Positions 5,487 to 55,692 of a DNA stretch of 64,000 nt are shown here, one piece after another. A model generated the notes under the pieces. The model did not search any database. It saw only the letters and a program-made list of their open reading frames with translations, and was not told where the DNA came from. The first letter of the stretch is position 1, and the number at the start of each line of letters is the position of its first letter. This DNA is from a virus, in the IMG/VR virus record IMGVR_UViG_3300026518_000011, positions 9,929 to 73,928 of that record; one strand, written 5' to 3'. The translations under genes and the position numbers were made by a program.

Positions 5487-6680
5487 TTAAGGTATAATAT
5501 AATCCACGATCACTCGTGCAGCGCCCGCTGTAGGAGCGCCCGTAATTGTTGCAATAATTTGTGTTGCGGCAATATATGAAACATTGGCAACTGTCGTATA
5601 AGTATTTATCGCCAGTGGATCATTGGCTACATTAGTCATCAATCGATCAACCAATCCCGCATCGCCAATATCAATCAGGGTCCCTACGGAATAGGCGGAT
5701 GTGATCTCCAACGATATAGCTCTGACAAATGCACCCGCTGGGAGTATTGCACCGATGTTGTATGACCCAGCAGTCCCCAATAGGACATTTCGTTGTTGAT
5801 TCGCCACAGTAGCGGCCACTCCGCCCGCTGCCGCTACTACGTCAGATACTGTGGCTCGTTCAATCGATGTAGAACTTTGATTATACACCAATAGGCTATC
5901 AGTGCCAACCAATGGATCAGATAACCCACCCACCCCGATGATATCATGATCAACAGTAAGGGTATTACCACCATCGGTGATTGTTACGGCAGTGCCAGCA
6001 GTGAATACTCGGGCATTTGGGAGTCCTGCATCAGCAATGAGAGTTAGATATTGAGCAGCAGCAGGACTTGATGTGGTGCCTGACCCTGCCACATACCCAA
6101 CGGGCATCCATACCCCATTAGCTGGGGTTCCCAAATAGGCCAGTTGGGATAATGATTCCTGTGAATATATACCAAGGGTAACTGTTGCGGTGCCAACACT
6201 ATCAGTGACCGTGATGGCCCCACCAGTGGCATGAGAGATCACCAGAACGTCTGCCACGGCCTGTGCTACGATATTGGGGATACCTACCGCATTAATGTCA
6301 GTAGCGACCTGTGCTGGCGTATATGGGGCACTCAGGGTCACTGACTGGCCGTTGATCAGTAATACGTCCCCCGCTGTTGCCGTTCCATAGGGGTATCCAG
6401 CAATGGTATTACCTGCTGGTGCCACTGGGGCACTCAGTGGGAGTTTCATCCATAACCCTACAGAAACAGGCAATTGTCTATTCTGTAGGATGGTGCTAGG
6501 GACGTCAGTATTATCGATCAGTATTAGATCACCAGGTCTGCCATAATCCATCGGGGGCACTGTATTACCCCGCCCCACAGTTAAAGGGCCGAATTTTAAT
6601 GCGGACTTGGTAACTTTTAGGTTATCTGGTCTATGAATCTGTCCGTCATAACCATGACTCGTAAAAAATGGATTTGGCAT
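5487..6680 (-). CDS. virion structural/fibre protein with flagellin_IN-like module
   Basis: LLINGQSVTL...AQVATDIN; C-terminal domain paralogous to that of 4023-5471 (PAG..V..IS...IGDAG...LM..ANDP). Confidence 0.55.
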   Translation of the reverse strand: MPNPFFTSHGYDGQIHRPDNLKVTKSALKFGPLTVGRGNTVPPMDYGRPGDLILIDNTDVPSTILQNRQLPVSVGLWMKLPLSAPVAPAGNTIAGYPYGTATAGDVLLINGQSVTLSAPYTPAQVATDINAVGIPNIVAQAVADVLVISHATGGAITVTDSVGTATVTLGIYSQESLSQLAYLGTPANGVWMPVGYVAGSGTTSSPAAAQYLTLIADAGLPNARVFTAGTAVTITDGGNTLTVDHDIIGVGGLSDPLVGTDSLLVYNQSSTSIERATVSDVVAAAGGVAATVANQQRNVLLGTAGSYNIGAILPAGAFVRAISLEITSAYSVGTLIDIGDAGLVDRLMTNVANDPLAINTYTTVANVSYIAATQIIATITGAPTAGAARVIVDYIIP

Positions 6681-6735
6681 ACCGTTGATATTCTCCTACC
6701 AGTATTTAGATAGTTTCACTAGTAGGAGAGATTGA

Positions 6736-7536
6736 TCATTTGGTGGGTGGGGTATTAGTTAGTTTAGTCCATGTCATAGCCCCTACCACACCATCTGGGG
6801 TTAATCCCCGTTTGGTTTGGAATCTACGAACTGCATTAAATGTGCCATTACCGAAATCTCCATCAACGGTGATACGGGACCCCTGCTTCACCAATAAGTC
6901 CTGCAATTGCCTAACCGCAGCGCCACGATTACCTTTACGCAATACGATGGGGGTTCGTCGTCCCGTTGACCTACGATGGGTTTGTTCGGCAATATGTGCT
7001 TTAGCCCCATAATTTCCACGGATGATACGTGCGTATGCAGGTGCCTGACCGGTACCATTATACCGTTCGGCAAATGTTAACCAATCCTTAGCCCGCAGAT
7101 AGGTGTCCAGTTTCCATGTCTTCAACAGAGTCACAAACGCATCTAGGTGAGCATCACCAGTGTTGGCCATGGCAACGACCATTGATCTGGCCGAGTCATA
7201 TCCGGCATCTTTAGCATTGAACCCCATAATCTGCGGGCCACCAAACGATGTTGCTCGTAGTGCAGCATCAGGAGACTTTGCGAATGCTGCACGGAACATC
7301 GCCTCTCTACGACCAGATGCAATCTTTAGGCTATCCCGCCAGTTAGTTTTCGCGTTGGGCATTTTGTGTGGTTCAAACCGACGAATCACTGACCCATCAC
7401 GTAAGAAGAATCTGCCAGAAGATTCGGCCATAAACACCGCTTCTACTGCTGCTGCTTCACAATTCAAATATTTTGCTGCACGGTCATATGCGCCTGCACT
7501 CATTGGGGTGTGTTTCCCCAGCCATGGTAATGTCAT
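6736..7536 (-). CDS. endolysin: N-acetylmuramidase (DUF3380) plus peptidoglycan-binding domain
   Basis: AVFMAESSG, RFEPH, TSFGGPQIMGFN, W.TFAERYNG; C-terminal LRKGNRGAAVRQLQ...DGDFG...FQ..RGLTPDGVVG (PG_binding_1). Confidence 0.9.
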   Translation of the reverse strand: MTLPWLGKHTPMSAGAYDRAAKYLNCEAAAVEAVFMAESSGRFFLRDGSVIRRFEPHKMPNAKTNWRDSLKIASGRREAMFRAAFAKSPDAALRATSFGGPQIMGFNAKDAGYDSARSMVVAMANTGDAHLDAFVTLLKTWKLDTYLRAKDWLTFAERYNGTGQAPAYARIIRGNYGAKAHIAEQTHRRSTGRRTPIVLRKGNRGAAVRQLQDLLVKQGSRITVDGDFGNGTFNAVRRFQTKRGLTPDGVVGAMTWTKLTNTPPTK

Positions 7537-7621
7537 GAATTTTATCCCCTATATACGAACAAATAGAGGCCCAACCAAATTGGGCCTCTATCCGTATTTA
7601 TCCTATAACTGATTACTGCCC

Positions 7622-10111
7622 TTAGTTGACAACATTAGCCGATAGTTGTTTAATGGCCACCCAGTTGGCAGTAGCACCATTTTGTGTTGCACGTGGATTA
7701 GCCTCGTTGGTTCTATAGGTCACAGCCACCGTATCTGTTGCTGCCATGTTCAGTGGGCCAGTTGACAGGTTGAATGCGGACCCTAACTGCGCATTGGTGG
7801 AACTATATTTCTGGGTTGCTACCGCAACCGCATTAACCAATATTTGCACAGTATAGGAGGCCGAGTTGACAGAATTCGTGGCATCTACATTACACGTAAT
7901 CTCATAAACTCCCGCATGTGGGATAGTAAACCCGTTCGTGGTGGTGCTGGCAACAGCAGCATTGTCAAATTCTACCACATCATACACTAGTTGTGTAACA
8001 TTATTACCCGTAAGGGTTTGTGCAACAGAGTTTGACATCTTAGCCATGATTGCTGGAGTAACTACCGCATCTTCTGGTCTTACCACGGTTGACTCACTCA
8101 GTTGAGTGACCGCCATCCATGATGATGCACCAATGTCACCAATAGCCCCGCCTATCCGCTGTAATACTACTGCCATGTTGACCACAGGAGTTACGGTGAT
8201 TCTACCAAAGAATGGTGAGGTCTGAGGCCCAGGGTCATTATTAGACGCAGACGAGAAAATCTCCCCCAACGGGGAATTGGTGAGGATATCATAGAACTGA
8301 ACATCAATAACGCCTGTTGCCAACCCTGGGTGAACTATTACTGCCTCTAACTCATATGTATTACCGGCAGTCAGTCCGAGGATTGCACCACCTGCATCTA
8401 ATGATAGTCCGCTACCATTACCATGTAATGTTTCATTCCACACTACATGGCTACCAACCCCAATATTCGTAGTGGCGGTAGTGGATACCTGCAAACGGGA
8501 TAATGGTTTTGGGACTATCATCCCTGGGTTAACTACACTAGCCGTAGGAAGCTCTGTGACCGTCAAATACGTACCAGGTCCAGCGTCACCGAGCGGGGAT
8601 GCAACATCTACATATATACCAATATCCACATTTGCAGTAGGGGTATACACCGTGGTCATGGAAGCCATAGACGCATTATTAGTATTCGCGTTAGTGGATT
8701 CTAACGCGATCTGACTACCAATTTTAACCCCCGCACTGGTTTGTACATTCCACAACGAGTAACTACTTGCAGTCGTTAACAATCGCACACCCGCTTCGAT
8801 TTTATAGGTCTTTCCGGCCACCAATGTTACCAAACCCGTGGTTGTTAAACCCTCTGTGATATTTTGTGATCCAGACGTCGTTTCCATCACCAGCGGAACA
8901 CCTGCAGCTACGTTGACCACAGAAGTGCGTCTGCCACTCACGCTACCCAATGGGGTGGGGACTACGGTTCCTGCCATAACTGTTTCAGTGTCAGGCAACT
9001 GGATCACTTCTAAAGCAGCAAATGCCACATTACTAGCAATACTACAATACGCTGATAATGATAATACATCCCCAGCCACTAGCTCATAGGTGTTATTATC
9101 CACTAGCGAGATTGTACCGTTACCAACAGTGCTTTCGGCATATGAAATTGATGCTGAATTTTTAATGATGGAAGTTTGATGTATTACCGCATTATTTACA
9201 TTTTGGTATTGACTAGAAACTCTATAGGTACCGGTCCGCTTAATCGTTACATGACTTCCTGCGCTAACCATACCACCTATGTCATAATCTATTGTATCCA
9301 GAACAATCGGAGTCCATGTGCCTGCAGGAAGCGACTGTGCAGCGGTATGATGGGCACGGGTACGGTGTAAGGTGGTCTGTGACGAGGCCCCTAAGACCGT
9401 AAGGTCCCACTTCCCATTACCGGTATCTATGGCCAGAACCATTTCACCATCGGAGACCACCGTATAAGACCCATCAAGGATTCCATTCAACGATTCCCCC
9501 ACCTGCACCTTAAGAGTCACGTTATTGGTGGATACGGTCTCCCCCACAAAAATATATCGACGCTGCGTCCCTGTGGCCGTAGGGAGCGTAAAATTAAATG
9601 CCCCACCAGAGGCGTTTAGATTATAGATTCCCTCTCCCGCATCAGCATCAGCAGTAATAGACCCATGTTTGGTCAACCCACCAGATGCGGTCAGACCTGT
9701 ATCAGCGGAAGTTGTCCATACAACAGTAGGTGAAGTCTTAGTTTGGGTAAAATCGAGCACCCGCGTATCGCCTGCCACTAAAGTTATTGATGCAACCGGA
9801 GACCCATCCGCCCGCGTATACCCGCTGGATAGCACGAATGTTCTAGCCACGGTATCTAAGTTCGTCAGCCGAAGGGTCATATTTTTTGCACCCCCGACGT
9901 TTATAGGATTATTAACCGTGACATTCCCCGTAGAATTCCCATCTATCACCAAGGCAAACGATCTGTGCCCGTTAAATAAATCTACATTGAACGGATTGCC
10001 AGTAGTTGCAGCCGTAACTGGGATATTAATGTCATACCCAGCCGCTGTAATGTTACTACCAGCGGTTAATCCACGAGCAACGGTAACGTCACCCTTAATA
10101 TCATATGCCAT
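7622..10111 (-). CDS. fibre/receptor-binding protein with about four tandem C1q/TNF-like domains
   Basis: WTPIVLDTIDYD..TIKRTGTYRV..LVAGDVLSL; TLVAGKTYKIEA; LTAGNTYELEA; VYDVVEFDN..FTIPHAGVYEI; linkers of the form QLP.T.TV.PG.VVP.PL. Confidence 0.65.
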   Translation of the reverse strand: MAYDIKGDVTVARGLTAGSNITAAGYDINIPVTAATTGNPFNVDLFNGHRSFALVIDGNSTGNVTVNNPINVGGAKNMTLRLTNLDTVARTFVLSSGYTRADGSPVASITLVAGDTRVLDFTQTKTSPTVVWTTSADTGLTASGGLTKHGSITADADAGEGIYNLNASGGAFNFTLPTATGTQRRYIFVGETVSTNNVTLKVQVGESLNGILDGSYTVVSDGEMVLAIDTGNGKWDLTVLGASSQTTLHRTRAHHTAAQSLPAGTWTPIVLDTIDYDIGGMVSAGSHVTIKRTGTYRVSSQYQNVNNAVIHQTSIIKNSASISYAESTVGNGTISLVDNNTYELVAGDVLSLSAYCSIASNVAFAALEVIQLPDTETVMAGTVVPTPLGSVSGRRTSVVNVAAGVPLVMETTSGSQNITEGLTTTGLVTLVAGKTYKIEAGVRLLTTASSYSLWNVQTSAGVKIGSQIALESTNANTNNASMASMTTVYTPTANVDIGIYVDVASPLGDAGPGTYLTVTELPTASVVNPGMIVPKPLSRLQVSTTATTNIGVGSHVVWNETLHGNGSGLSLDAGGAILGLTAGNTYELEAVIVHPGLATGVIDVQFYDILTNSPLGEIFSSASNNDPGPQTSPFFGRITVTPVVNMAVVLQRIGGAIGDIGASSWMAVTQLSESTVVRPEDAVVTPAIMAKMSNSVAQTLTGNNVTQLVYDVVEFDNAAVASTTTNGFTIPHAGVYEITCNVDATNSVNSASYTVQILVNAVAVATQKYSSTNAQLGSAFNLSTGPLNMAATDTVAVTYRTNEANPRATQNGATANWVAIKQLSANVVN

Positions 10112-10168
10112 AATTCATTCTCCTTTCAAGAGAAAACAGGGGGATATTACTATCCCCCAACAAAGTTG

Positions 10169-12421
10169 TTAGCTAATTACGATTCGCCCAGCAAAACGAG
10201 CATCTGGGGTAGAGATGACTTGCATTTCAACATCTCCGTTAGCAAATATTGTAAGTTTATTCACGGTCACCAAGAAGTAATTTCCCAATCCATCACTCTG
10301 ATACGTTTGGACAATTGATGGGGACGTGATCCCATGAGCGGTGGCCAGTATTTTATTGGAATATACCCCGCCAGATACTGTCCCCCAATCTGTGGTAGCA
10401 TTAAATACTGTCACCGAAGGAGATTGTGGCGGTGTGGACCACCCCAGTTTGCCAGCACCATCGGTATCAATAAGAACTTGACCGGTGGCAGTGGGGCCAG
10501 CAGCGGGCAATGTAATCGTATAAGCCGATGTAACTGATGCTGGCGCAGTAAATCCTATAGCAATAGAATTAGCACCAATCAGTGATATTGCACCACCTGT
10601 AACACCATCACCATTACTGATACTAACATCATTGCCAACCCCGTTAGTGGTTAGGGAGATTCCTTTACCTGCTACTGTAATAGGCTGCGAGGTCCCACCA
10701 TCCAGTGTTATTGCGCCTGTTGACTTGATATCAAGTGCTTTGGCAACCGGACTCAATACACTAAAATCAAAACCATTCAATGATATGGTCCGAACAGAGG
10801 ACAATACCGCATTTGTAGTCTCGATCCAATTAACGGCAGGTGCCGGTTCCTGAATAAGAGTTACTACCCCAGAATTGTCTGAATAATATACGTGAGTGAT
10901 TGGGTCAGTGTTAATATTCGTACCAGTGTAATAGATAAAGGTGTCAGTATTATTTGGTCCATTAAACACTGCAATTTCCGCAGGGGTTGGATTACCGGCG
11001 GTGGCCGGAGCTACTGCTGAATCTTTGGCGAATGCCCGATCATTGCCAGCATTCAGTGGTTGCCATTTGTTACTAGTGCGGTCCGAATAATACGCACGGC
11101 CTAAAATGTTGTCAACCCCCCAACGAACCCCAGCAGGAACTGGGCCACTCAATGCGGTTGGACTCTCAATCACCTCATTCACTGGCGCTGTTGCATAATG
11201 TAGCCCATCAGTGCCAATAGTCAGACTATTGCCAATATCTGCTGATACCCCTTGTGCAGGGTGTTTGTGGTCTTCTCGTACTAAATTGCTACTTACACCC
11301 ACTGCACCAACACCATCGGTAGCTGCTGGTGAAATCGCACTGGCTAAGACGAAGTCCATACTTTCAAATTCAGCAATCTTTTTCCATGCAGTTCCGTCCC
11401 ATACATACATAGCAGCACCAGCGGTAACTGTAGCATCACCAGATGCATCTACCACATAAGCAATATCACCGATTAATTGTCCGGTTGCTGCTGCCATTGC
11501 TGCACTATTCGCAAATACATCTTGATTAGTTGCAATCGTATGAGGGGAGGTAAGCTCGGTGACTGTCCCAGAGACATCCACATGATATACATAGGTAGGA
11601 GCAGACGCGGGTAGATCATCGCCGGTGTAATACAAGATAGCGTCAGTATAAGGACCTGTCAGGGCAAATGCAGTGATTTCCCCCACCGTGGGCTGACCAG
11701 CGGTCGCTGGAGCAACGGTGGTATTATCCGCATGGACACGATTATTTGCAACCGACGCTAATGCTACCAATTTTCCATCAGCGCCAGATGTAATTATATT
11801 ACCAGCATCAGTGGAAATCAGATTGGTAGGGCCTGCCATATGCAAACCGTCGGTACCTACGGTCAAAAGTTGACCTGCATCCGCAGATACGCCTTGTGCA
11901 GGATGTTTGTGGTCTTGTCTCGAAACTTTAGGAGATACACCAATTGCGCCGGTGGCATTATTAGCCGCAGGGGATACCCCCGTAGCATACACCACCGATA
12001 TTCGGGAATCAATATCTAACTGCAACTCCACCAATGCAGCCTGAACATCCGTTGATGTAAGATTACCAACAGGTGTGACAGTAATTTCGGCACCTATATA
12101 ATCTCCAGCAACCGCTACCACATTGCCCGTACGGCCAAATACCGATGCTACTGCACCCCCACCCCCACCACCACCAGTGGCACCCCATGTGGTCCCACCA
12201 TAGGTCTCCAATTGAGAGGTAGTAGTATTCCAGATCAATAGTCCTGCAACAGGGGATGGAATAGCATCTCGCTGCGCGGTGGTCAATCGAGCAGTAAGAA
12301 AGCCACCGTTAGTATCTTCAATTTGAATAACCGCCGATGGTTCACCAGCGGTTCGGGCATTTACGGCATTGTTTCCCACCATAACTGGCTTTAGGCGGTA
12401 TTTACGATTCGGGTCAGACAT
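10169..12421 (-). CDS. tail fibre protein with internal duplications and HxH motifs
   Basis: GGFLTARLTTAQRDAI.SP.AGLLIWNT N-terminal module; two copies of DHKHPAQGVSAD...GTDGLH and of VAPATAG.PT..EI..F...YYTG. Confidence 0.7.
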   Translation of the reverse strand: MSDPNRKYRLKPVMVGNNAVNARTAGEPSAVIQIEDTNGGFLTARLTTAQRDAIPSPVAGLLIWNTTTSQLETYGGTTWGATGGGGGGGAVASVFGRTGNVVAVAGDYIGAEITVTPVGNLTSTDVQAALVELQLDIDSRISVVYATGVSPAANNATGAIGVSPKVSRQDHKHPAQGVSADAGQLLTVGTDGLHMAGPTNLISTDAGNIITSGADGKLVALASVANNRVHADNTTVAPATAGQPTVGEITAFALTGPYTDAILYYTGDDLPASAPTYVYHVDVSGTVTELTSPHTIATNQDVFANSAAMAAATGQLIGDIAYVVDASGDATVTAGAAMYVWDGTAWKKIAEFESMDFVLASAISPAATDGVGAVGVSSNLVREDHKHPAQGVSADIGNSLTIGTDGLHYATAPVNEVIESPTALSGPVPAGVRWGVDNILGRAYYSDRTSNKWQPLNAGNDRAFAKDSAVAPATAGNPTPAEIAVFNGPNNTDTFIYYTGTNINTDPITHVYYSDNSGVVTLIQEPAPAVNWIETTNAVLSSVRTISLNGFDFSVLSPVAKALDIKSTGAITLDGGTSQPITVAGKGISLTTNGVGNDVSISNGDGVTGGAISLIGANSIAIGFTAPASVTSAYTITLPAAGPTATGQVLIDTDGAGKLGWSTPPQSPSVTVFNATTDWGTVSGGVYSNKILATAHGITSPSIVQTYQSDGLGNYFLVTVNKLTIFANGDVEMQVISTPDARFAGRIVIS

Positions 12422-13417: not shown

Positions 13418-14863
13418 TTATATATTCCTTCCAGTTTCCAGCCAGAATGATCCATCCCACATGAGATTTAAGACTGAAGATTGGCCCAATACGATAGAGC
13501 CATTTAAGATAAGTAGTCCTGCACTATTATACTGAACCGTATTGGTATTGTTGCCGCCAATCACTGTCAATCGTTCCCCAACAGATGTCCCAAGCGTAAA
13601 TGGTATCGCAACGGTCGCCACCACCGGACCCCCTAACCCCTCCACGAATACGATATTCTCGTTAGCGACGGTCGGTAATATGATTGTAGTCAGTCCGTCA
13701 GTGGCCACTGGCACTGTGCGGCTTCCGACCACTGTGGGGGTATTGATAGTAGCCACCCATGATAGATTACCCGTCCCGTCGGTGGTTAGGGCGTCCCCCG
13801 TAGCCCCGTCCGCTGCTGGAAGGGTCCACACCTGATTGGAGGGCGCATTTATAGGACCCTTAAATCCTACATATCCGTTGTTGCCAGTTCCTGTCCCATC
13901 CTTAAACCGTAACTCCCCAGTAGTAGGTGCGATTGGATCGGCCCCAATAACCACCCACCCAAAATTGGCTGCACCCCCCGTTGATGATCTCCCCGGTTGT
14001 AATAGGACCAATCCGCCCACACCGGTGTTTGTTGTTCCGCCCTGCAACGTCGCAGGGCCACCATCCCCACTACCTAATGACCCACCGCCGCGTATCACGG
14101 ATGCACCACCTGTGCCAGATACACTACCACCCAGACCACCCGAAATAATCACTTGGCCACCAAACCCAGTTGTGCCGCCATCTCCAGCAGTTTGAATGAT
14201 TCTACCCCCCTGCGAGGTGTCAGTGTTTCCTGCATCAATAATGATATCCCCACCGCTACCAATAGCCCCAGCGGGTTTATCAGCAGTGCGTATAGTAATC
14301 TTACCAGCCTGCCCCGCTAATATACCAGAGCCACCAGCGGCAATCATAATATTGCCACCATTACCAGAATCGGCCCCACTACCACTAGTAATACTGATAG
14401 GAGTCCCTGCGGTGTTACCAGCAGCCAGTCCACTAGATGCAGTAATGTTGATACCACTAGTGGACCAACTCAATTGATTAGTAAGACCAGTATAGTTACC
14501 AGTATTGTCACCGATATCCAACGTTAGGGTATCATTGTCTGCCGTTTTTTCCACAGACAGCCTAGTGTCACTATCGGCATCTACCATGTCAGTGATATTG
14601 ACTGCACCACCACTACTGAGAGGAACCCATGTGATCCCGTCATAGTATTCAAACTGGGTGATATCCCAATTCCAGATCAACAACGCCGGTGTGGGTTGTT
14701 GAATCAAATCCCGCTGAACTGTGGTCATCCTAGCAGTCAAGAAACCACCATTCGTGTCATCGATGTGTATTGCAGCCGAGGGTTCCGGAACGGCACGTGT
14801 CTGGACCGGATTATTTGAAACCATAAATGGCTTCAAGCGGTGTTTACGATTATACGCAACCAT
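13418..14863 (-). CDS. glycine-rich tail fibre protein
   Basis: N-terminus paralogous to 10169-12421; repeated G.GG.I.I.AG; WTLPAADGATGDALTTDGTGNLSW. Confidence 0.7.
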   Translation of the reverse strand: MVAYNRKHRLKPFMVSNNPVQTRAVPEPSAAIHIDDTNGGFLTARMTTVQRDLIQQPTPALLIWNWDITQFEYYDGITWVPLSSGGAVNITDMVDADSDTRLSVEKTADNDTLTLDIGDNTGNYTGLTNQLSWSTSGINITASSGLAAGNTAGTPISITSGSGADSGNGGNIMIAAGGSGILAGQAGKITIRTADKPAGAIGSGGDIIIDAGNTDTSQGGRIIQTAGDGGTTGFGGQVIISGGLGGSVSGTGGASVIRGGGSLGSGDGGPATLQGGTTNTGVGGLVLLQPGRSSTGGAANFGWVVIGADPIAPTTGELRFKDGTGTGNNGYVGFKGPINAPSNQVWTLPAADGATGDALTTDGTGNLSWVATINTPTVVGSRTVPVATDGLTTIILPTVANENIVFVEGLGGPVVATVAIPFTLGTSVGERLTVIGGNNTNTVQYNSAGLLILNGSIVLGQSSVLNLMWDGSFWLETGRNI

Positions 14864-52747: not shown

Positions 52748-52908
52748 TAGTTGTCTCCCATTGGATAGGTATAATATTAAAATAGTGCCACTGCCATTAT
52801 ATCACACAAAGTATGGTCGAACTACACGGCGGCATCATTATTATTTAGCATGATTATGACAAAACGGGGGCCAAAATGGATAAGTGGGATAATATTTACC
52901 CCACTAGG

Positions 52909-53148
52909 TCATTTATCACGTTCAGTGTATTTGCGGTATATCCGTTTGAATTTTGAAAAATCATCATCCTTAATCGCACGAAACCACGCTTTCATCATTA
53001 AATCGAAGGATTTATCATCATCTCCCACTTCTTGGCGTAATAATTGTAGAAATCGGACCCCCACATTCAATGAGCTTTCGGCACGGGATTCAAGACCATT
53101 GCCAGAATAACGGGTGATTTCATCAAAGAGTGATTTTCTATTATCCAT
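52909..53148 (-). CDS. small hypothetical late protein
   Basis: ATG 6 nt after TAAATA (53155-53160). Confidence 0.6.
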   Translation of the reverse strand: MDNRKSLFDEITRYSGNGLESRAESSLNVGVRFLQLLRQEVGDDDKSFDLMMKAWFRAIKDDDFSKFKRIYRKYTERDK

Positions 53149-53164
53149 AATGGGTATTTAACTC

Positions 53165-53197
53165 ATACTATACCGGATTACAACCATCGGGACTTGC
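53165..53197. repeat. left direct repeat (att-like)
   Basis: Copy of the 3' end (KSRWL-stop) of gene 55381-55692. Confidence 0.9.
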
Positions 53198-53318
53198 CAC
53201 GTGCAAGAAATCCTTGGCCGCTATCCCACCGTGCAGCTCTGCTTGTTTCAGGTAGTCGCGAAACGCCCCCAAGGGACGCCTCTTGGTATTCCTTAATCTC
53301 AAAATTGACCGCAGCCAT
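53178..53318 (-). pseudogene. type III restriction (Res) subunit N-terminal remnant, frameshifted and truncated
   Basis: ATG 1 nt after the Mod stop: MAAVNFEIKEYQEASLG; removing one G from a G5 run gives AFRDYLKQAELHG, resembling Res N-termini (LK.YQ..AL..L..YL). Confidence 0.65.
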
Positions 53319-53319
53319 A

Positions 53320-55086
53320 TTATGCCCCCTCAATTTGATAGGGTATTTGCTTGAAGGTAACGCCAGCCTCTGCCAGTCGTTCCTTGTCCACGGTGCATCC
53401 TTCGCCATAGACAATCCAGCCGCCCTCAAACCCATCGGGGGGCGCTGGCAGTGCCGCCATTGTATCAGGCGTCAACACATTGCCAGACGCTTCCCGAGCA
53501 AAGCCGGGTTCAGCGGGGGAGAAAAGTAAATAGACCGCTTTGTCCTGATAGTGCCCCAAATAAGGGGAGTCCCCCAAGGCATTGGACGGGATTGGCACAC
53601 CGCATTCGGCAAAGAACACATGGGCGGCCAAGTCGGGGAAAGTCACACCGCCGTCGATATCACCAAATTCGTTGAAGAGTGGCACGCCAAGGCGGCAATA
53701 GCGGAAACCGCCGCCAAGCCCATCCACGGGTTTGGCAGGCTCGCCGCCTTTGTTATAGCCATGGATCACACGTTTTAGCCGTTCGGCAGTGATATCAGGG
53801 GCAATCTGTTCATCCATTTCCACAAGAATGAATTTGCGGTTGCCGCCATCTTGTTTGTTGAGGTCAAGAACAGCGTGGCCTGTGGTGCCAGAGCCGGCGA
53901 AGGAATCTAGGATTAGGTCGTTAGGACTCGTCGCAACTTGAATGAGGTAAGAGATCAATTGTTTTGGCTTGGGATACGTGAACGATAGCCCCATGTCTTC
54001 GATTTCAGATCGCATCTTTTCTGTGGTGCTGAACCCGCGAAGCACTGAAAGAATGTTTCGAGTGGTTTTTGGCTTGTCTTTTCGGTAATAAATCACTCCG
54101 CCAGAAGACAAATAAAATGTCATTGTAGAACCGTCGGATTCCTTAATCGGTAAACAGCCGTTGTCTATAAATGCTTTCAACTTTTTAACATTTGCCCATC
54201 CTGAATAGACGCGGCATCGAGCAGTTAACGCGCCATCTCTGGCTACCATCTTGTCAAAGCGAAGTGGAAAACTAATCCCAGGAAAACGACGTTTTAGAGG
54301 ATTGCTTGACATACCCTCAACCATCGCTTCGATCAGCCCGTCCGGCACCAAGGACACGTCCAAATACAATTCAGCTGATTGAACTGGGAACCCAACTGGT
54401 AACACAACTTCACTAGGTGGGTTTGCCTTCCCGTTTTTAGTTATCGAATTCTCAGCGAACCCAGCCCATACATTGCTTTCTTCGCGAGTATTTGGGTCGA
54501 TTACATATCCAAACTCGGCATCAACTGGATTTTTCGCATAGCACAACACATACTCGTGGTTCACTTTGACAGCGTGCTGGTTACCCGTATGCCCATCGGT
54601 ATTCCAAATAAAATTGGTGACAAAACCGCGACGTCCAAAAATTTCATCCAGAATCGAACGAAGCGATTGTGACTCATTGTCGTCATGGCTTATTAAAATC
54701 AGGCCATCTTCACGGAGGAATTCTCGCAGCAATCGCAGGCGAGGATACATCATGCACAACCATTTGTCATGACGTGACAAATCTTCCCCTTCTTTCATTA
54801 CCTCTTTGTCTAACCATGCTCTTATTTCTGGTGAATTGACGTTGTCATTATATGACCAGTTTTCGTTACCAGTGTTATAGGGTGGGTCGATATAGATGCA
54901 TTTCACCTTGCCCGCGTAATAGGGCAACAGGGCTTTCAGCGCCTCAAGGTTGTCGCCCTGCACCAGCAGATTGCCCGCATCGGCGTCCCCTGTAGACAGG
55001 TCGCCATCACAATGCACCAACCGATACGGCACTTCGCGGTGATGATTAACGACGGCTTTCTTACCGATCCAGTCTAACGTGGGCAT
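53320..55086 (-). CDS. mod: type III R-M Mod subunit, beta-class N6-adenine DNA methyltransferase
   Basis: MPTLDWIGK, NLLVQGDNLEAL, YIDPPYNTG, WLCMMYPRL, YPKP..LI, ILDSFAGSGTTGHA, GGGFRY, FKQIPY. Confidence 0.93.
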   Translation of the reverse strand: MPTLDWIGKKAVVNHHREVPYRLVHCDGDLSTGDADAGNLLVQGDNLEALKALLPYYAGKVKCIYIDPPYNTGNENWSYNDNVNSPEIRAWLDKEVMKEGEDLSRHDKWLCMMYPRLRLLREFLREDGLILISHDDNESQSLRSILDEIFGRRGFVTNFIWNTDGHTGNQHAVKVNHEYVLCYAKNPVDAEFGYVIDPNTREESNVWAGFAENSITKNGKANPPSEVVLPVGFPVQSAELYLDVSLVPDGLIEAMVEGMSSNPLKRRFPGISFPLRFDKMVARDGALTARCRVYSGWANVKKLKAFIDNGCLPIKESDGSTMTFYLSSGGVIYYRKDKPKTTRNILSVLRGFSTTEKMRSEIEDMGLSFTYPKPKQLISYLIQVATSPNDLILDSFAGSGTTGHAVLDLNKQDGGNRKFILVEMDEQIAPDITAERLKRVIHGYNKGGEPAKPVDGLGGGFRYCRLGVPLFNEFGDIDGGVTFPDLAAHVFFAECGVPIPSNALGDSPYLGHYQDKAVYLLFSPAEPGFAREASGNVLTPDTMAALPAPPDGFEGGWIVYGEGCTVDKERLAEAGVTFKQIPYQIEGA

Positions 55087-55271
55087 GAGCGCAAATCACC
55101 TTCTTCAATATGAAACCACTTGAAATCCCTACGCCCGTTCCAAATGTCAAACCTTTCTAGTGCAGATATTTCTCGATCTAAAGACTTTTCAGAAAGCTGG
55201 CATGCATATTTTCGATACTCCAGAAAACGGCGTTTCAGGCGTTCATTTTTCTCATTCGGGCGCTTGCTCAT
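55074..55271 (-). pseudogene. tyrosine integrase N-terminal remnant (about 57 codons)
   Basis: NEKNERLKRRFLEY.K....SEKS.D....AL.RF.......DFK.FHIE resembles N-termini of alphaproteobacterial integrases; no catalytic domain; GGAG RBS. Confidence 0.65.
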
Positions 55272-55367
55272 TTTGATCTCCTATCATGCAAGATATTGGG
55301 GAATTGTTGCGACTACTTGGGTTGGTGCCCCAAGCGGAAAAACAAGGGGGTTATGTCCGCCATTATA

Positions 55368-55400
55368 ATACTATACTGGATTACAACCATCGGGACTTGC
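55368..55400. repeat. right direct repeat (att-like)
   Basis: Overlaps the last codons and stop of 55381-55692. Confidence 0.9.
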
Positions 55401-55692
55401 GCCCAAATCGATACTCTTTACCATCCCGACGTTTTACCATGAAGAGGCTTTTGATATGCTCAGGGAATGTGGCAAACGCCTCTTCATCAAACATCATGTC
55501 CAAATCCAACAAAAATTGGACCAATGTCCTCATGGAATTTGATTCGTCTGGCAATGGCAGCATTTCATTCCGATCAGTGACAAACACCCGACGTAGTATC
55601 TCTACTAATACTGTATTCAACTGATCTTGAGTCATATGTTCGGTTGGTACGAATTTCATACCCTTTGTGAACATTTTGTGATTACTACTCAT
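55381..55692 (-). CDS. hypothetical protein; its 3' end is the insertion target
   Basis: ATGA overlap with the helicase; ends RFGRKSRWL. Confidence 0.65.
   Translation of the reverse strand: MSSNHKMFTKGMKFVPTEHMTQDQLNTVLVEILRRVFVTDRNEMLPLPDESNSMRTLVQFLLDLDMMFDEEAFATFPEHIKSLFMVKRRDGKEYRFGRKSRWL

Follow-up and report, generated by a model that had tools for sequence, protein, structure and literature searches.

A 2.2-kb segment in the genome of a jumbo phage is evidently a true insertion of foreign, bacterial DNA. It carries an intact type III DNA methyltransferase gene (mod), accompanied by the 5′ remnants of an integrase gene and of a restriction-subunit gene (res). The locus shows clearly how phages gain orphan anti-restriction methylases, but as a case it is ordinary. 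Its history was probably an illegitimate capture of a host fragment, with duplication of a 33-nt target, followed by a decay that left an orphan anti-restriction methylase.

The insert and its empty site

The window, that is, the whole 64-kb stretch of DNA analysed, contains a 33-nt direct repeat at 53165–53197 and 55368–55400. The two copies are identical at 32 of 33 positions and bracket 2.2 kb. They are the only copies of the 33-mer in the window (0 in 100 shuffles), and no other pair was found among dispersed repeats of at least 22 nt in the 64 kb. The right copy consists of the 3′ end of phage gene A (20 nt, about the last six codons and the stop) and 13 nt of spacer, and the left copy duplicates the end of gene A and is non-functional. 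Gene A itself (55381–55692, minus strand; 103 amino acids) is the last gene of the primase-helicase operon and is intact, with its 3′ end inside the right repeat. These coordinates bear out the first-pass annotation, which had described a 33-bp repeat with one mismatch that duplicates the end and stop codon of this gene and leaves the gene whole. Beyond the left repeat lie a 16-nt spacer with a TAAATA late-promoter-like motif and then phage gene B, together 52909–53164 on the minus strand. Gene B (52909–53148; 79 amino acids) weakly matches a virion protein family and is followed by a terminator-like hairpin at 52883–52905; a scan for promoters and terminators gave counts that did not exceed those of shuffled sequence.

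The same locus without the insert is found in L202, a distant phage relative of 376 kb (93% complete) that was reached by the gene B search only. In L202, a gene A homologue (46% identity) lies directly upstream of a gene B homologue with a spacer of 12 nt, and the order primase, helicase, gene A, gene B and the next four genes is kept at 42–71% amino acid identity. No Mod and no PF00589 tyrosine recombinase was found in L202. Since this syntenic genome has the flanking genes 12 nt apart without Mod or integrase, we read the 2.2-kb segment as a genuine insertion; the expectation that the two flanking genes would be adjacent in related phages was thus confirmed. The bacterial derivation proposed at the outset is supported by this empty site, by the alphaproteobacterial relatives of Mod and by the Roseovarius-family matches of the integrase. 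As a 93%-complete genome lacks a tyrosine recombinase, the lineage looks lytic, as had been presumed. The phage nature of the record itself is shown by its synteny with the 376-kb phage and by PHROG replication genes.

Two further gene A homologues are 93% and 77% identical. The latter is encoded on a 32,347-bp contig, and no Mod from such a contig is among the best 120 Mod matches, which hints only weakly at another phage without the insert. Among GenBank phages, megablast found no match to the region, scans of viral and metagenome contigs with helicase and gene A gave no close relative, and a scan with the helicase profile returned just the source record.

The methyltransferase and the two truncated genes

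Mod (53320–55086, minus strand) is intact at 588 amino acids. It matches PF01555 (N6_N4_Mtase) with a score of 123.1 bits, compared with a curated cut-off of 26.7. The DPPY motif (IV) at residues 67–70 precedes the FAGSG motif (I) at residues 396–400, with the recognition-domain region between them, and the protein is a predicted beta-class N6-adenine type III DNA methyltransferase. Solved type III Mods are matched with E-values of 9e-50 (6K0W) and 3e-44 (EcoP15I Mod, 4ZCF). The length of 588 residues and the catalytic motifs are kept in three variants, 88–99% identical; the 88% variant is encoded on a 4,079-bp contig. Between variants, the middle part of the protein is the most variable, and substitutions are thinnest around the catalytic motifs. 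Because Mod is full length, has kept its catalytic motifs in the 88% and 99% variants and matches solved Mods, it is likely functional.

The named relatives of Mod among the best 120 matches are all alphaproteobacterial, and alphaproteobacterial Mods are 54–61% identical to the phage protein. Some further Mod matches reach roughly 70% identity. The highest G+C content of any 300-nt window in the 64 kb lies in the C-terminal part of Mod (0.583, compared with a mean of 0.451 and a standard deviation of 0.041). At third codon positions, G+C is 0.40 in the integrase stub, 0.55–0.58 in the conserved parts of Mod and 0.45–0.83 in the bacterial relatives; as a clock for the acquisition, these values are not decisive.

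The stub ORF (55074–55271, minus strand) comprises 65 codons and ends 12 nt inside the Mod gene. Its codons 1–57 (55101–55271) are homologous to tRNA-Ser-type tyrosine integrases and align to full-length tyrosine recombinases, in agreement with the initial description of an integrase N-terminus cut off after about 57 codons and joined to the Mod ribosome-binding site. The last eight codons are new sequence that runs across the ribosome-binding site and start of Mod. The deletion junction (55087–55100, minus strand) leads from integrase codon 57 to a point just upstream of the Mod start; it is placed where nucleotide homology to plasmid pSC52_1 ends, after codon 57. Deriving the deletion point from conserved Mod leaders was rejected, and the exact base of the deletion is not fixed, because the relatives share no conserved sequence ahead of Mod. 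The 65-residue ORF is also present in two other assemblies, with two to three substitutions.

Upstream of the stub lie 96 nt of bacterial non-coding DNA (55272–55367, minus strand) that represent the 5′ region of the integrase gene. Nucleotide homology to pSC52_1, whose integrase is 79% identical to the stub, spans all 96 nt and ends exactly at the repeat. An alignment of 11 sequences shows in this region a motif of about 45 nt that is kept upstream of all relatives, together with an AGGAG ribosome-binding site. The region begins at the last codon and stop of an excisionase-like helix-turn-helix (HTH) gene, which in the close relatives L224 and L226 has its stop at −96 to −94 relative to the integrase. 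For this reason, no remnant of the excisionase-like gene is detectable within the 96 nt.

The res gene starts with an ATG at 53318–53316, 1 nt past the Mod stop. Its remnant (53222–53318, minus strand) consists of 17 codons with homology to Res N-termini, one additional G within a G5 run (plus-strand C-run 53266–53270) and 15 codons that match in the shifted frame. A 12-sequence profile of Res N-termini scores 41.5 bits over 32 codons when it reads through the shift and 24.2 bits over 19 codons in the ATG frame. The profile alignment stops at codon 32, 24 nt (53198–53221, minus strand) before the left repeat, which begins 121 nt after the ATG. The earlier reading, in which res begins, shifts by +1 in a G5 run and is lost by about 120 bp, is therefore substantiated by a profile that crosses the shift. 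As far as sequence alignment goes, Res is shown to be cut to about 40 codons and to carry the +1 frameshift, and the integrase and Res pieces are evidently real homologous stubs. With about 32 homologous and frameshifted Res codons left, the locus does not hold a complete type III restriction-modification system; the sole ResIII match in the 74-kb record is below the cut-off and in an unrelated 608-aa frame.

Mod is thus found in a phage without a cognate nuclease, Res being destroyed. Judging from its family, Mod alone would methylate the phage DNA at one asymmetric site, and this methylation would shield the DNA from those host restriction systems that recognise the same site. Orphan methyltransferases are used against restriction by phages and other mobile elements (PMC12707154). 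Transcription would probably reach Mod by read-through from the replication operon, from the bacterial 5′ region kept with the integrase stub, or from both; read-through from gene A is probable since no terminator-like site lies between the two genes. The overlap of the Mod start with the end of the stub ORF suggests translational coupling, which would explain why the stub persists.

Bacterial relatives and the origin of the repeat

Of 201 genomes in the family to which G001 (Roseovarius) belongs, 23 have full-length integrases with 65–83% identity to the stub. In each of them, the gene is flanked by an excisionase-like gene on one side and by a convergent tRNA-Ser gene on the other. The stub is therefore the remnant of a true integration module. 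The attachment site (tRNA-Ser) of these relatives lies about 110 nt 3′ of the integrase gene, whereas in the phage 96 nt separate the 5′ end of the stub from the repeat, whose relative orientation is reversed. No clear second attachment-site copies of the tRNA-Ser elements were seen within the 9–17 kb fetched. A Mod-Res pair was found within 8 kb of a close integrase at 0 of 9 loci. Four islands (L015, L039, L045 and L097) do have an integrase relative directly upstream of Mod-Res, and in these it is a separate integrase of the P4 type, at a tRNA gene, that defines the island edge.

The search for a parent element that had been suggested at the outset was successful in part: relatives of Mod and of the stub exist in bacterial genomes, but the 33-mer as their attachment core does not occur in a sample of 401 alphaproteobacterial genomes, even with up to three mismatches. 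The 33-mer is likewise absent from the samples of viral contigs searched. At best, it agrees with the variable-arm/T-arm region of a tRNA-Ser at 19 of 23 positions when one gap is allowed (P 0.002 from shuffles; P 0.06–0.19 for other tRNA-Ser types). At the right end, the repeat abuts the stop of the HTH gene; at the left end, no attachment-site arm is visible, because the cut Res gene leaves at most 24 nt before the repeat.

One end of the insert at the HTH gene stop and the other inside res would fit a fragment, which we favour over a whole element. In the history that we consider probable, a lytic jumbo phage with T4-like replication genes would have taken up contiguous host DNA of Rhodobacteraceae type, running from the excisionase-like gene stop through a tRNA-Ser-type integrase and a type III mod to the first codons of res. 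The landing site would have been the 29-nt spacer between the primase-helicase operon and the first late gene. We infer that the DNA most likely entered by illegitimate, non-site-specific recombination: the target would have been joined at two points separated by 33 nt, and these 33 nt would thereby have been duplicated. A later internal deletion fused integrase codon 57 to the ribosome-binding region of mod. The adjacency of integrase and Mod-Res in the donor is assumed; it is modelled on the four more distant islands. As counterpoints, a 33-nt duplication is long for illegitimate recombination, and the tRNA-Ser likeness of the 33-mer keeps a site-specific route alive.

The first-pass annotation had instead taken the repeat as the attachment core of the stub's own integrase. 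A complete integrase-Mod-Res element would then have integrated site-specifically at the 3′ end of gene A, and deletions would have trimmed it to Mod. Tyrosine-integrase islands typically have repeats of such size at gene 3′ ends, and the repeat preserves gene A. The stub also comes from a true integrase family that is paired with an excisionase-like gene and adjoins a tRNA gene, and the 33-mer has a weak likeness to the T-arm region of tRNA-Ser. However, conservative recombination makes no duplication, so that this model needs a prior identity of 32 of 33 nt to a gene that has been found in this phage group only, in an element whose 33-mer was not seen in the viral contigs and 401 genomes searched. 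The attachment site of the family is 3′ and convergent, not 5′ and in the opposite relative orientation, and three deletions are needed, one ending exactly at the right repeat and another no more than 24 nt from the left one. We consider this course of events unlikely, and the idea that the repeat is the attachment core of this integrase is not supported. From the original proposal that deletions turned an integrated island into an orphan methylase, the retention of Mod beside integrase and Res stubs stands, and the attachment core lacks support. A variant in which the 33-mer is a pseudo-attachment site that mimics the tRNA-Ser T-arm, and in which a non-canonical site-specific event, driven by a tRNA-Ser integrase or by an element that carries it, brought in defence-island DNA, is rather doubtful as well. 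It includes the idea that the spacer region may be a hotspot at which lineages take up different DNA-modification genes, the type III Mod in this phage and a Mom-domain fusion protein in L202. If it were true, integrative islands could parasitise lytic phage genomes.

The repeat could also reflect movement of the cassette between related phages, by a Campbell-type single crossover with a 2.2-kb circle or a donor phage that has one 33-mer. It would then be the homology that was used, and the cassette could be lost or passed on through it. A single crossover through short homology leaves flanking repeats of this kind, and T4-type phages are efficient at recombining through short homologies and at shuffling cassettes. 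In keeping with spread, Mod is less diverged than gene A (1.2% compared with 4.9%) between the record and its variant on an independent 10,223-bp ENA contig. Nevertheless, such a transfer merely moves the origin of the first copy elsewhere, the window contains no third 33-mer and no other such cassette, and no circle or alternative location was seen, which makes it improbable. The ENA contig also bears on an assembly chimera of phage and bacterial reads, to which one might attribute the difference in G+C between the insert and its surroundings in a metagenome assembly. It carries helicase, gene A, the stub, Mod and the next phage gene, and a 2,604-bp NCBI contig carries gene A and the stub; the proteins of both contigs differ from those of the record by a few residues. 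Because an independent 10.2-kb assembly has the identical arrangement, and since a mis-join does not yield truncated genes together with a 33-bp duplication, we regard a chimera as extremely improbable and set this objection aside. Finally, Mod might not serve anti-restriction and might be an inactive relic that is being lost, or an epigenetic regulator of phage or host expression. Its decaying neighbours point to a region under relaxed selection, but the mod frame and motifs are intact down to the 88% variant while the integrase and res genes are stubs and res is frameshifted. Type III-like Mods also stand alone in other lytic phages, and orphan methylases are a known counter-defence of such phages (PMC12707154), so that there is little probability of either role.

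Comparison with known systems

In having no restriction partner, the phage Mod resembles the orphan methyltransferases of lytic phages (rV5-like Escherichia phages, Campylobacter phages and T4 Dam), whose role is presumed to be self-protection. The type III-like Mods of rV5-like and Campylobacter phages are only about 31% identical to it. In contrast to those loci, the present one keeps the 5′ ends of integrase and res and the target duplication, and these surviving relics make it possible to trace the bacterial source and the sequence of events.

EcoP15I and EcoP1I have a Mod of the same family and motif order and a res gene that begins right after the mod stop. In the present locus, by contrast, Res is destroyed, and it is a lytic jumbo phage rather than a plasmid prophage that carries the genes; EcoP1I is carried whole by phage P1.

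The four alphaproteobacterial islands, which are tRNA-linked, contain a P4-type integrase, an excisionase-like HTH gene, a second tyrosine recombinase, Mod, sometimes RhuM, and Res. They share the recombinase-Mod-Res order and the Mod and Res families with the phage insert. Their recombinase, however, is 33–39% identical to the stub, and they are whole islands bounded by tRNA repeats from the P4-type integrase, whereas the phage insert is the inner piece only. The tRNA-Ser elements (L224–L232 and pSC52_1) are close in the integrase N-terminus (65–83% identity) and match the 96-nt 5′ region at the nucleotide level, but they have no adjoining Mod-Res (nine loci), their integrase is full length or separately broken, and their attachment site is 3′ of the gene.

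Phage orphan methylases are assumed to derive from restriction-modification systems, and intermediate stages are rarely visible. If captured as we propose, one locus and one empty-site relative together show the source, which we read as an alphaproteobacterial type III operon beside a tRNA-Ser integrase, the landing site, the target duplication and the later decay, in which the integrase was deleted, res was frameshifted and cut, and mod was kept. The locus is no new kind of system but a useful teaching case, and it offers a concrete lead on which hosts (Rhodobacteraceae-like) this uncultured jumbo phage, about 380 kb in size, infects.

Organisation of the insert

The 2.2-kb insert lies between gene A (55381–55692), the last gene of the primase-helicase operon, and gene B (52909–53148 region), the next phage gene, and every gene around it is carried on the minus strand. 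It is bracketed by a 33-nt direct repeat (53165–53197 and 55368–55400) with one base differing between the copies. These are the only two copies in the 64-kb window (none in 100 shuffles), and no other dispersed repeat of at least 22 nt is found in the 64 kb. The right copy consists of the last six codons and stop of gene A and 13 nt beyond, and gene A (minus strand) remains intact despite the insertion, as the first-pass annotation had described.

Read in gene direction, the DNA between the copies comprises 96 nt of non-coding sequence, a 65-codon ORF that is an integrase N-terminal remnant (the stub; 55074–55271, minus strand), a 588-aa ORF with a PF01555 methyltransferase domain (Mod; 53320–55086, minus strand) and a Res-like frame on the same strand, whose ATG lies 1 nt past the Mod stop. 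Against a profile built from 12 Res N-termini, this ATG frame scores 24.2 bits over 19 codons; skipping one G of the G5 run at 53266–53270 yields 41.5 bits over 32 codons, bearing out the +1 frameshift and subsequent loss that had been read there. Res homology stops at about 53222, within 24 nt of the repeat edge that faces it (53197). All the features that the first-pass annotation had observed are thus confirmed.

An empty-site relative of the phage

The window derives from a 74-kb IMG/VR record rated 19% complete, whose proteins are also found on a 110-kb contig. The nearest helicase match is the 490-kb Agrobacterium phage Atu_ph07 (31%). A scan with gene B led to L202, which belongs to a 376-kb phage contig with a completeness rating of 93% and has the same gene order as the window (primase, helicase, gene A, gene B and the next four genes) at 42–71% amino acid identity. 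Since only 12 nt separate the gene A stop from the gene B start in L202, and its 376-kb genome contains neither a relative of the phage Mod nor a tyrosine recombinase domain, the 2.2 kb represents an insertion particular to the lineage of the window. The adjacency of genes A and B expected of a related phage is thus present, and the presumption of a lytic phage is also supported: this jumbo-phage lineage shows no lysogeny module. In both phages, the gene B ATG is preceded at only 6–7 nt by a short motif, TAAATA in the window (53149–53164) and CAAATA in L202 (5989–6000), leaving no room for a ribosome-binding site between them.

An assembly artefact is ruled out by an independent 10,223-bp ENA contig, on which helicase, gene A, stub, Mod and the next phage gene occur together, and in part by a 2,604-bp NCBI contig with gene A and the stub; the proteins of both differ from those of the window by a few residues.

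In L202, a 578-aa ORF (6234–7970, minus strand) with DUF723, treble-clef zinc finger, REase_MTES_1575 and Mom-family domains separates gene B from the next gene that the two phages share, an interval of only 160 nt in the window. Around one and the same site, within ~300 nt, the two lineages therefore have different genes for DNA modification. Elsewhere in the window, a second stretch of unusually high G+C (13551–14250; 0.56–0.57 versus a mean of 0.45) sits inside a 481-aa ORF (13418–14863), which may be another foreign gene.

Origin of the integrase remnant and of the repeat

The initial matches of the stub were weak, being recombinases at 33–39%. These adjoin Mod-Res on the upstream side in four alphaproteobacterial islands (L015, L039, L045 and L097), where an excisionase-like HTH gene is followed by the recombinase. 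The block lies inside the island, and a separate P4-type integrase near one island end adjoins a tRNA gene in three of the four; in two, the tRNA 3′ end recurs as a short repeat on the far side of Res. In L045 (Hyphomonas johnsonii), the final 245 nt of the recombinase gene linked to Mod occur twice (6508–6752 and 7570–7814, 72% identity), with the duplicate just upstream of mod and a 141-aa ORF between the copies, a possible sign that cassettes are exchanged at this gene's 3′ end. The tRNA-Leu island L039 (Phyllobacterium MAG) carries a RhuM-family gene between mod and res (9776–10822).

With the integrase of plasmid pSC52_1 (L203, Rhodobacteraceae strain), the stub shares 79% identity, and relatives at 65–83% occur in 23 of 201 genomes from the family of the Roseovarius genome G001. 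The nucleotide alignment with pSC52_1 spans the stub to codon 57, in agreement with the truncation point already noted, as well as the whole 96 nt upstream, and breaks off precisely at the boundary between the insert and the right repeat. None of the bacterial loci and genomes searched yielded the donor locus.

Among the ten loci of close integrase relatives (L203 and L224–L232), eight have a convergent tRNA-Ser gene ~110 nt past the integrase stop, and the homology that they have in common extends from about −100 to +1242, the far end of the tRNA. Housekeeping genes lie beyond the tRNA in L224 and L226 (SPOR protein, D-Ala-D-Ala carboxypeptidase, thymidylate kinase, pol III delta′ and TatD). 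Five of the ten loci have an excisionase-like gene ahead of the integrase; in L224 and L226 it ends at −96 to −94. The family is a classic tRNA-targeting integration module, with att 3′ of the integrase. Right after the excisionase-like stop (about −96 to −55 from the integrase ATG), a non-coding motif of ~45 nt is kept in all copies of the family (L224, L225, L226, L229–L232 and L203) and retained in the phage (55320–55367); it may be a promoter or operator. In L225 (8339–12812), the integrase is interrupted by ~3.4 kb at about codon 297, and that of pSC52_1 (L203:9001–10040) is split into ORFs of 133 and 204 aa.

The first-pass annotation took the duplicated end of gene A for an att core at which the stub's integrase had inserted the element site-specifically. 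We consider this unlikely. The phage repeat abuts the 5′ side of the stub, whereas att in the relatives is 3′ of the integrase; the foreign DNA opens with the final codon and the stop of the excisionase-like gene, and at the left end the cut Res gene approaches the repeat with no visible att arm. To our knowledge, conservative site-specific recombination cannot generate a duplication, so the element must already have carried 32 of the 33 nt of gene A. However, gene A is known only from the phage group of the window, and no match to the 33-mer came up in viral contigs or, with up to three mismatches allowed, in 401 alphaproteobacterial genomes, where the att core had been expected alongside relatives of the stub. 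Three deletions would also be needed, of which one would have to stop precisely at the right repeat and a second ≤24 nt from the left. A variant of this reading starts from tRNA-Ser, which integrases of the stub's family naturally target. Read in the sense of gene A, the 33-mer (55368–55400) is similar to the variable-arm and T-arm part of tRNA-Ser: in comparisons with the genes of L231 (9463–9552), L229, L203 and L224, the best match agrees at 19/23 positions with a single gap (shuffle P 0.002), and P is 0.06–0.19 for other tRNA-Ser types. Relative to the stub, however, its orientation is opposite to that of tRNA-Ser relative to the integrase in bacteria. The likeness is probably coincidence, and a pseudo-attachment site seems quite improbable.

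We propose instead that the phage, while its DNA was replicating, took up a piece of the host's DNA by illegitimate joining, the two junctions falling 33 nt apart. The captured piece would have comprised the end of an excisionase-like gene, the integrase, probably its tRNA-Ser, mod and the start of res. Such a target-duplicating event would have been viable because gene A survived it whole, as did the late-promoter-like TAAATA motif ahead of gene B. A later internal deletion would have removed the DNA from integrase codon 58 to just before the mod start, and Res, whether cut from the outset at the junction or shortened later, would have gained its +1 frameshift. Microhomology of 2 nt would be involved at the right junction if the donor matched the close relatives immediately ahead of the TTA codon.

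Retention and predicted role of Mod

Mod is intact, as previously annotated, with DPPY followed by FAGSG; among type III Mods of solved structure, it matches 6K0W and EcoP15I. Its closest relatives are alphaproteobacterial (54–61%; Sulfitobacter, Rhizobium, Thioclava and others), and one group of metagenome proteins is ~70% identical. A Res gene is present in 108 of 117 related Mod loci, beginning directly after the Mod stop in the closest loci read in detail. While the flanking int and res are reduced to stubs, Mod keeps its 588-aa length and motifs in variants 99% and 88% identical, with the fewest substitutions around the catalytic motifs.

Type III Mod enzymes such as EcoP1I and EcoP15I methylate without Res. 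Judging from its family, the phage Mod would act as an orphan anti-restriction methyltransferase; mobile elements, phages included, use orphan methyltransferases against restriction (PMC12707154). Lone type III-like Mods in lytic phages are already known from GenBank, as in rV5-like and Campylobacter phages (~31% identity to the phage Mod), and phage P1 carries a whole type III system, whereas Res is a stub here. The novelty lies solely in the traces of capture and decay that survive here, together with an empty-site relative.

We found no terminator-like site between gene A and Mod; one is present after gene B. The stub has a good ribosome-binding site and its end lies 12 nt inside Mod, an arrangement that suggests translational coupling; such coupling would account for the retention of this 65-aa ORF in three assemblies.
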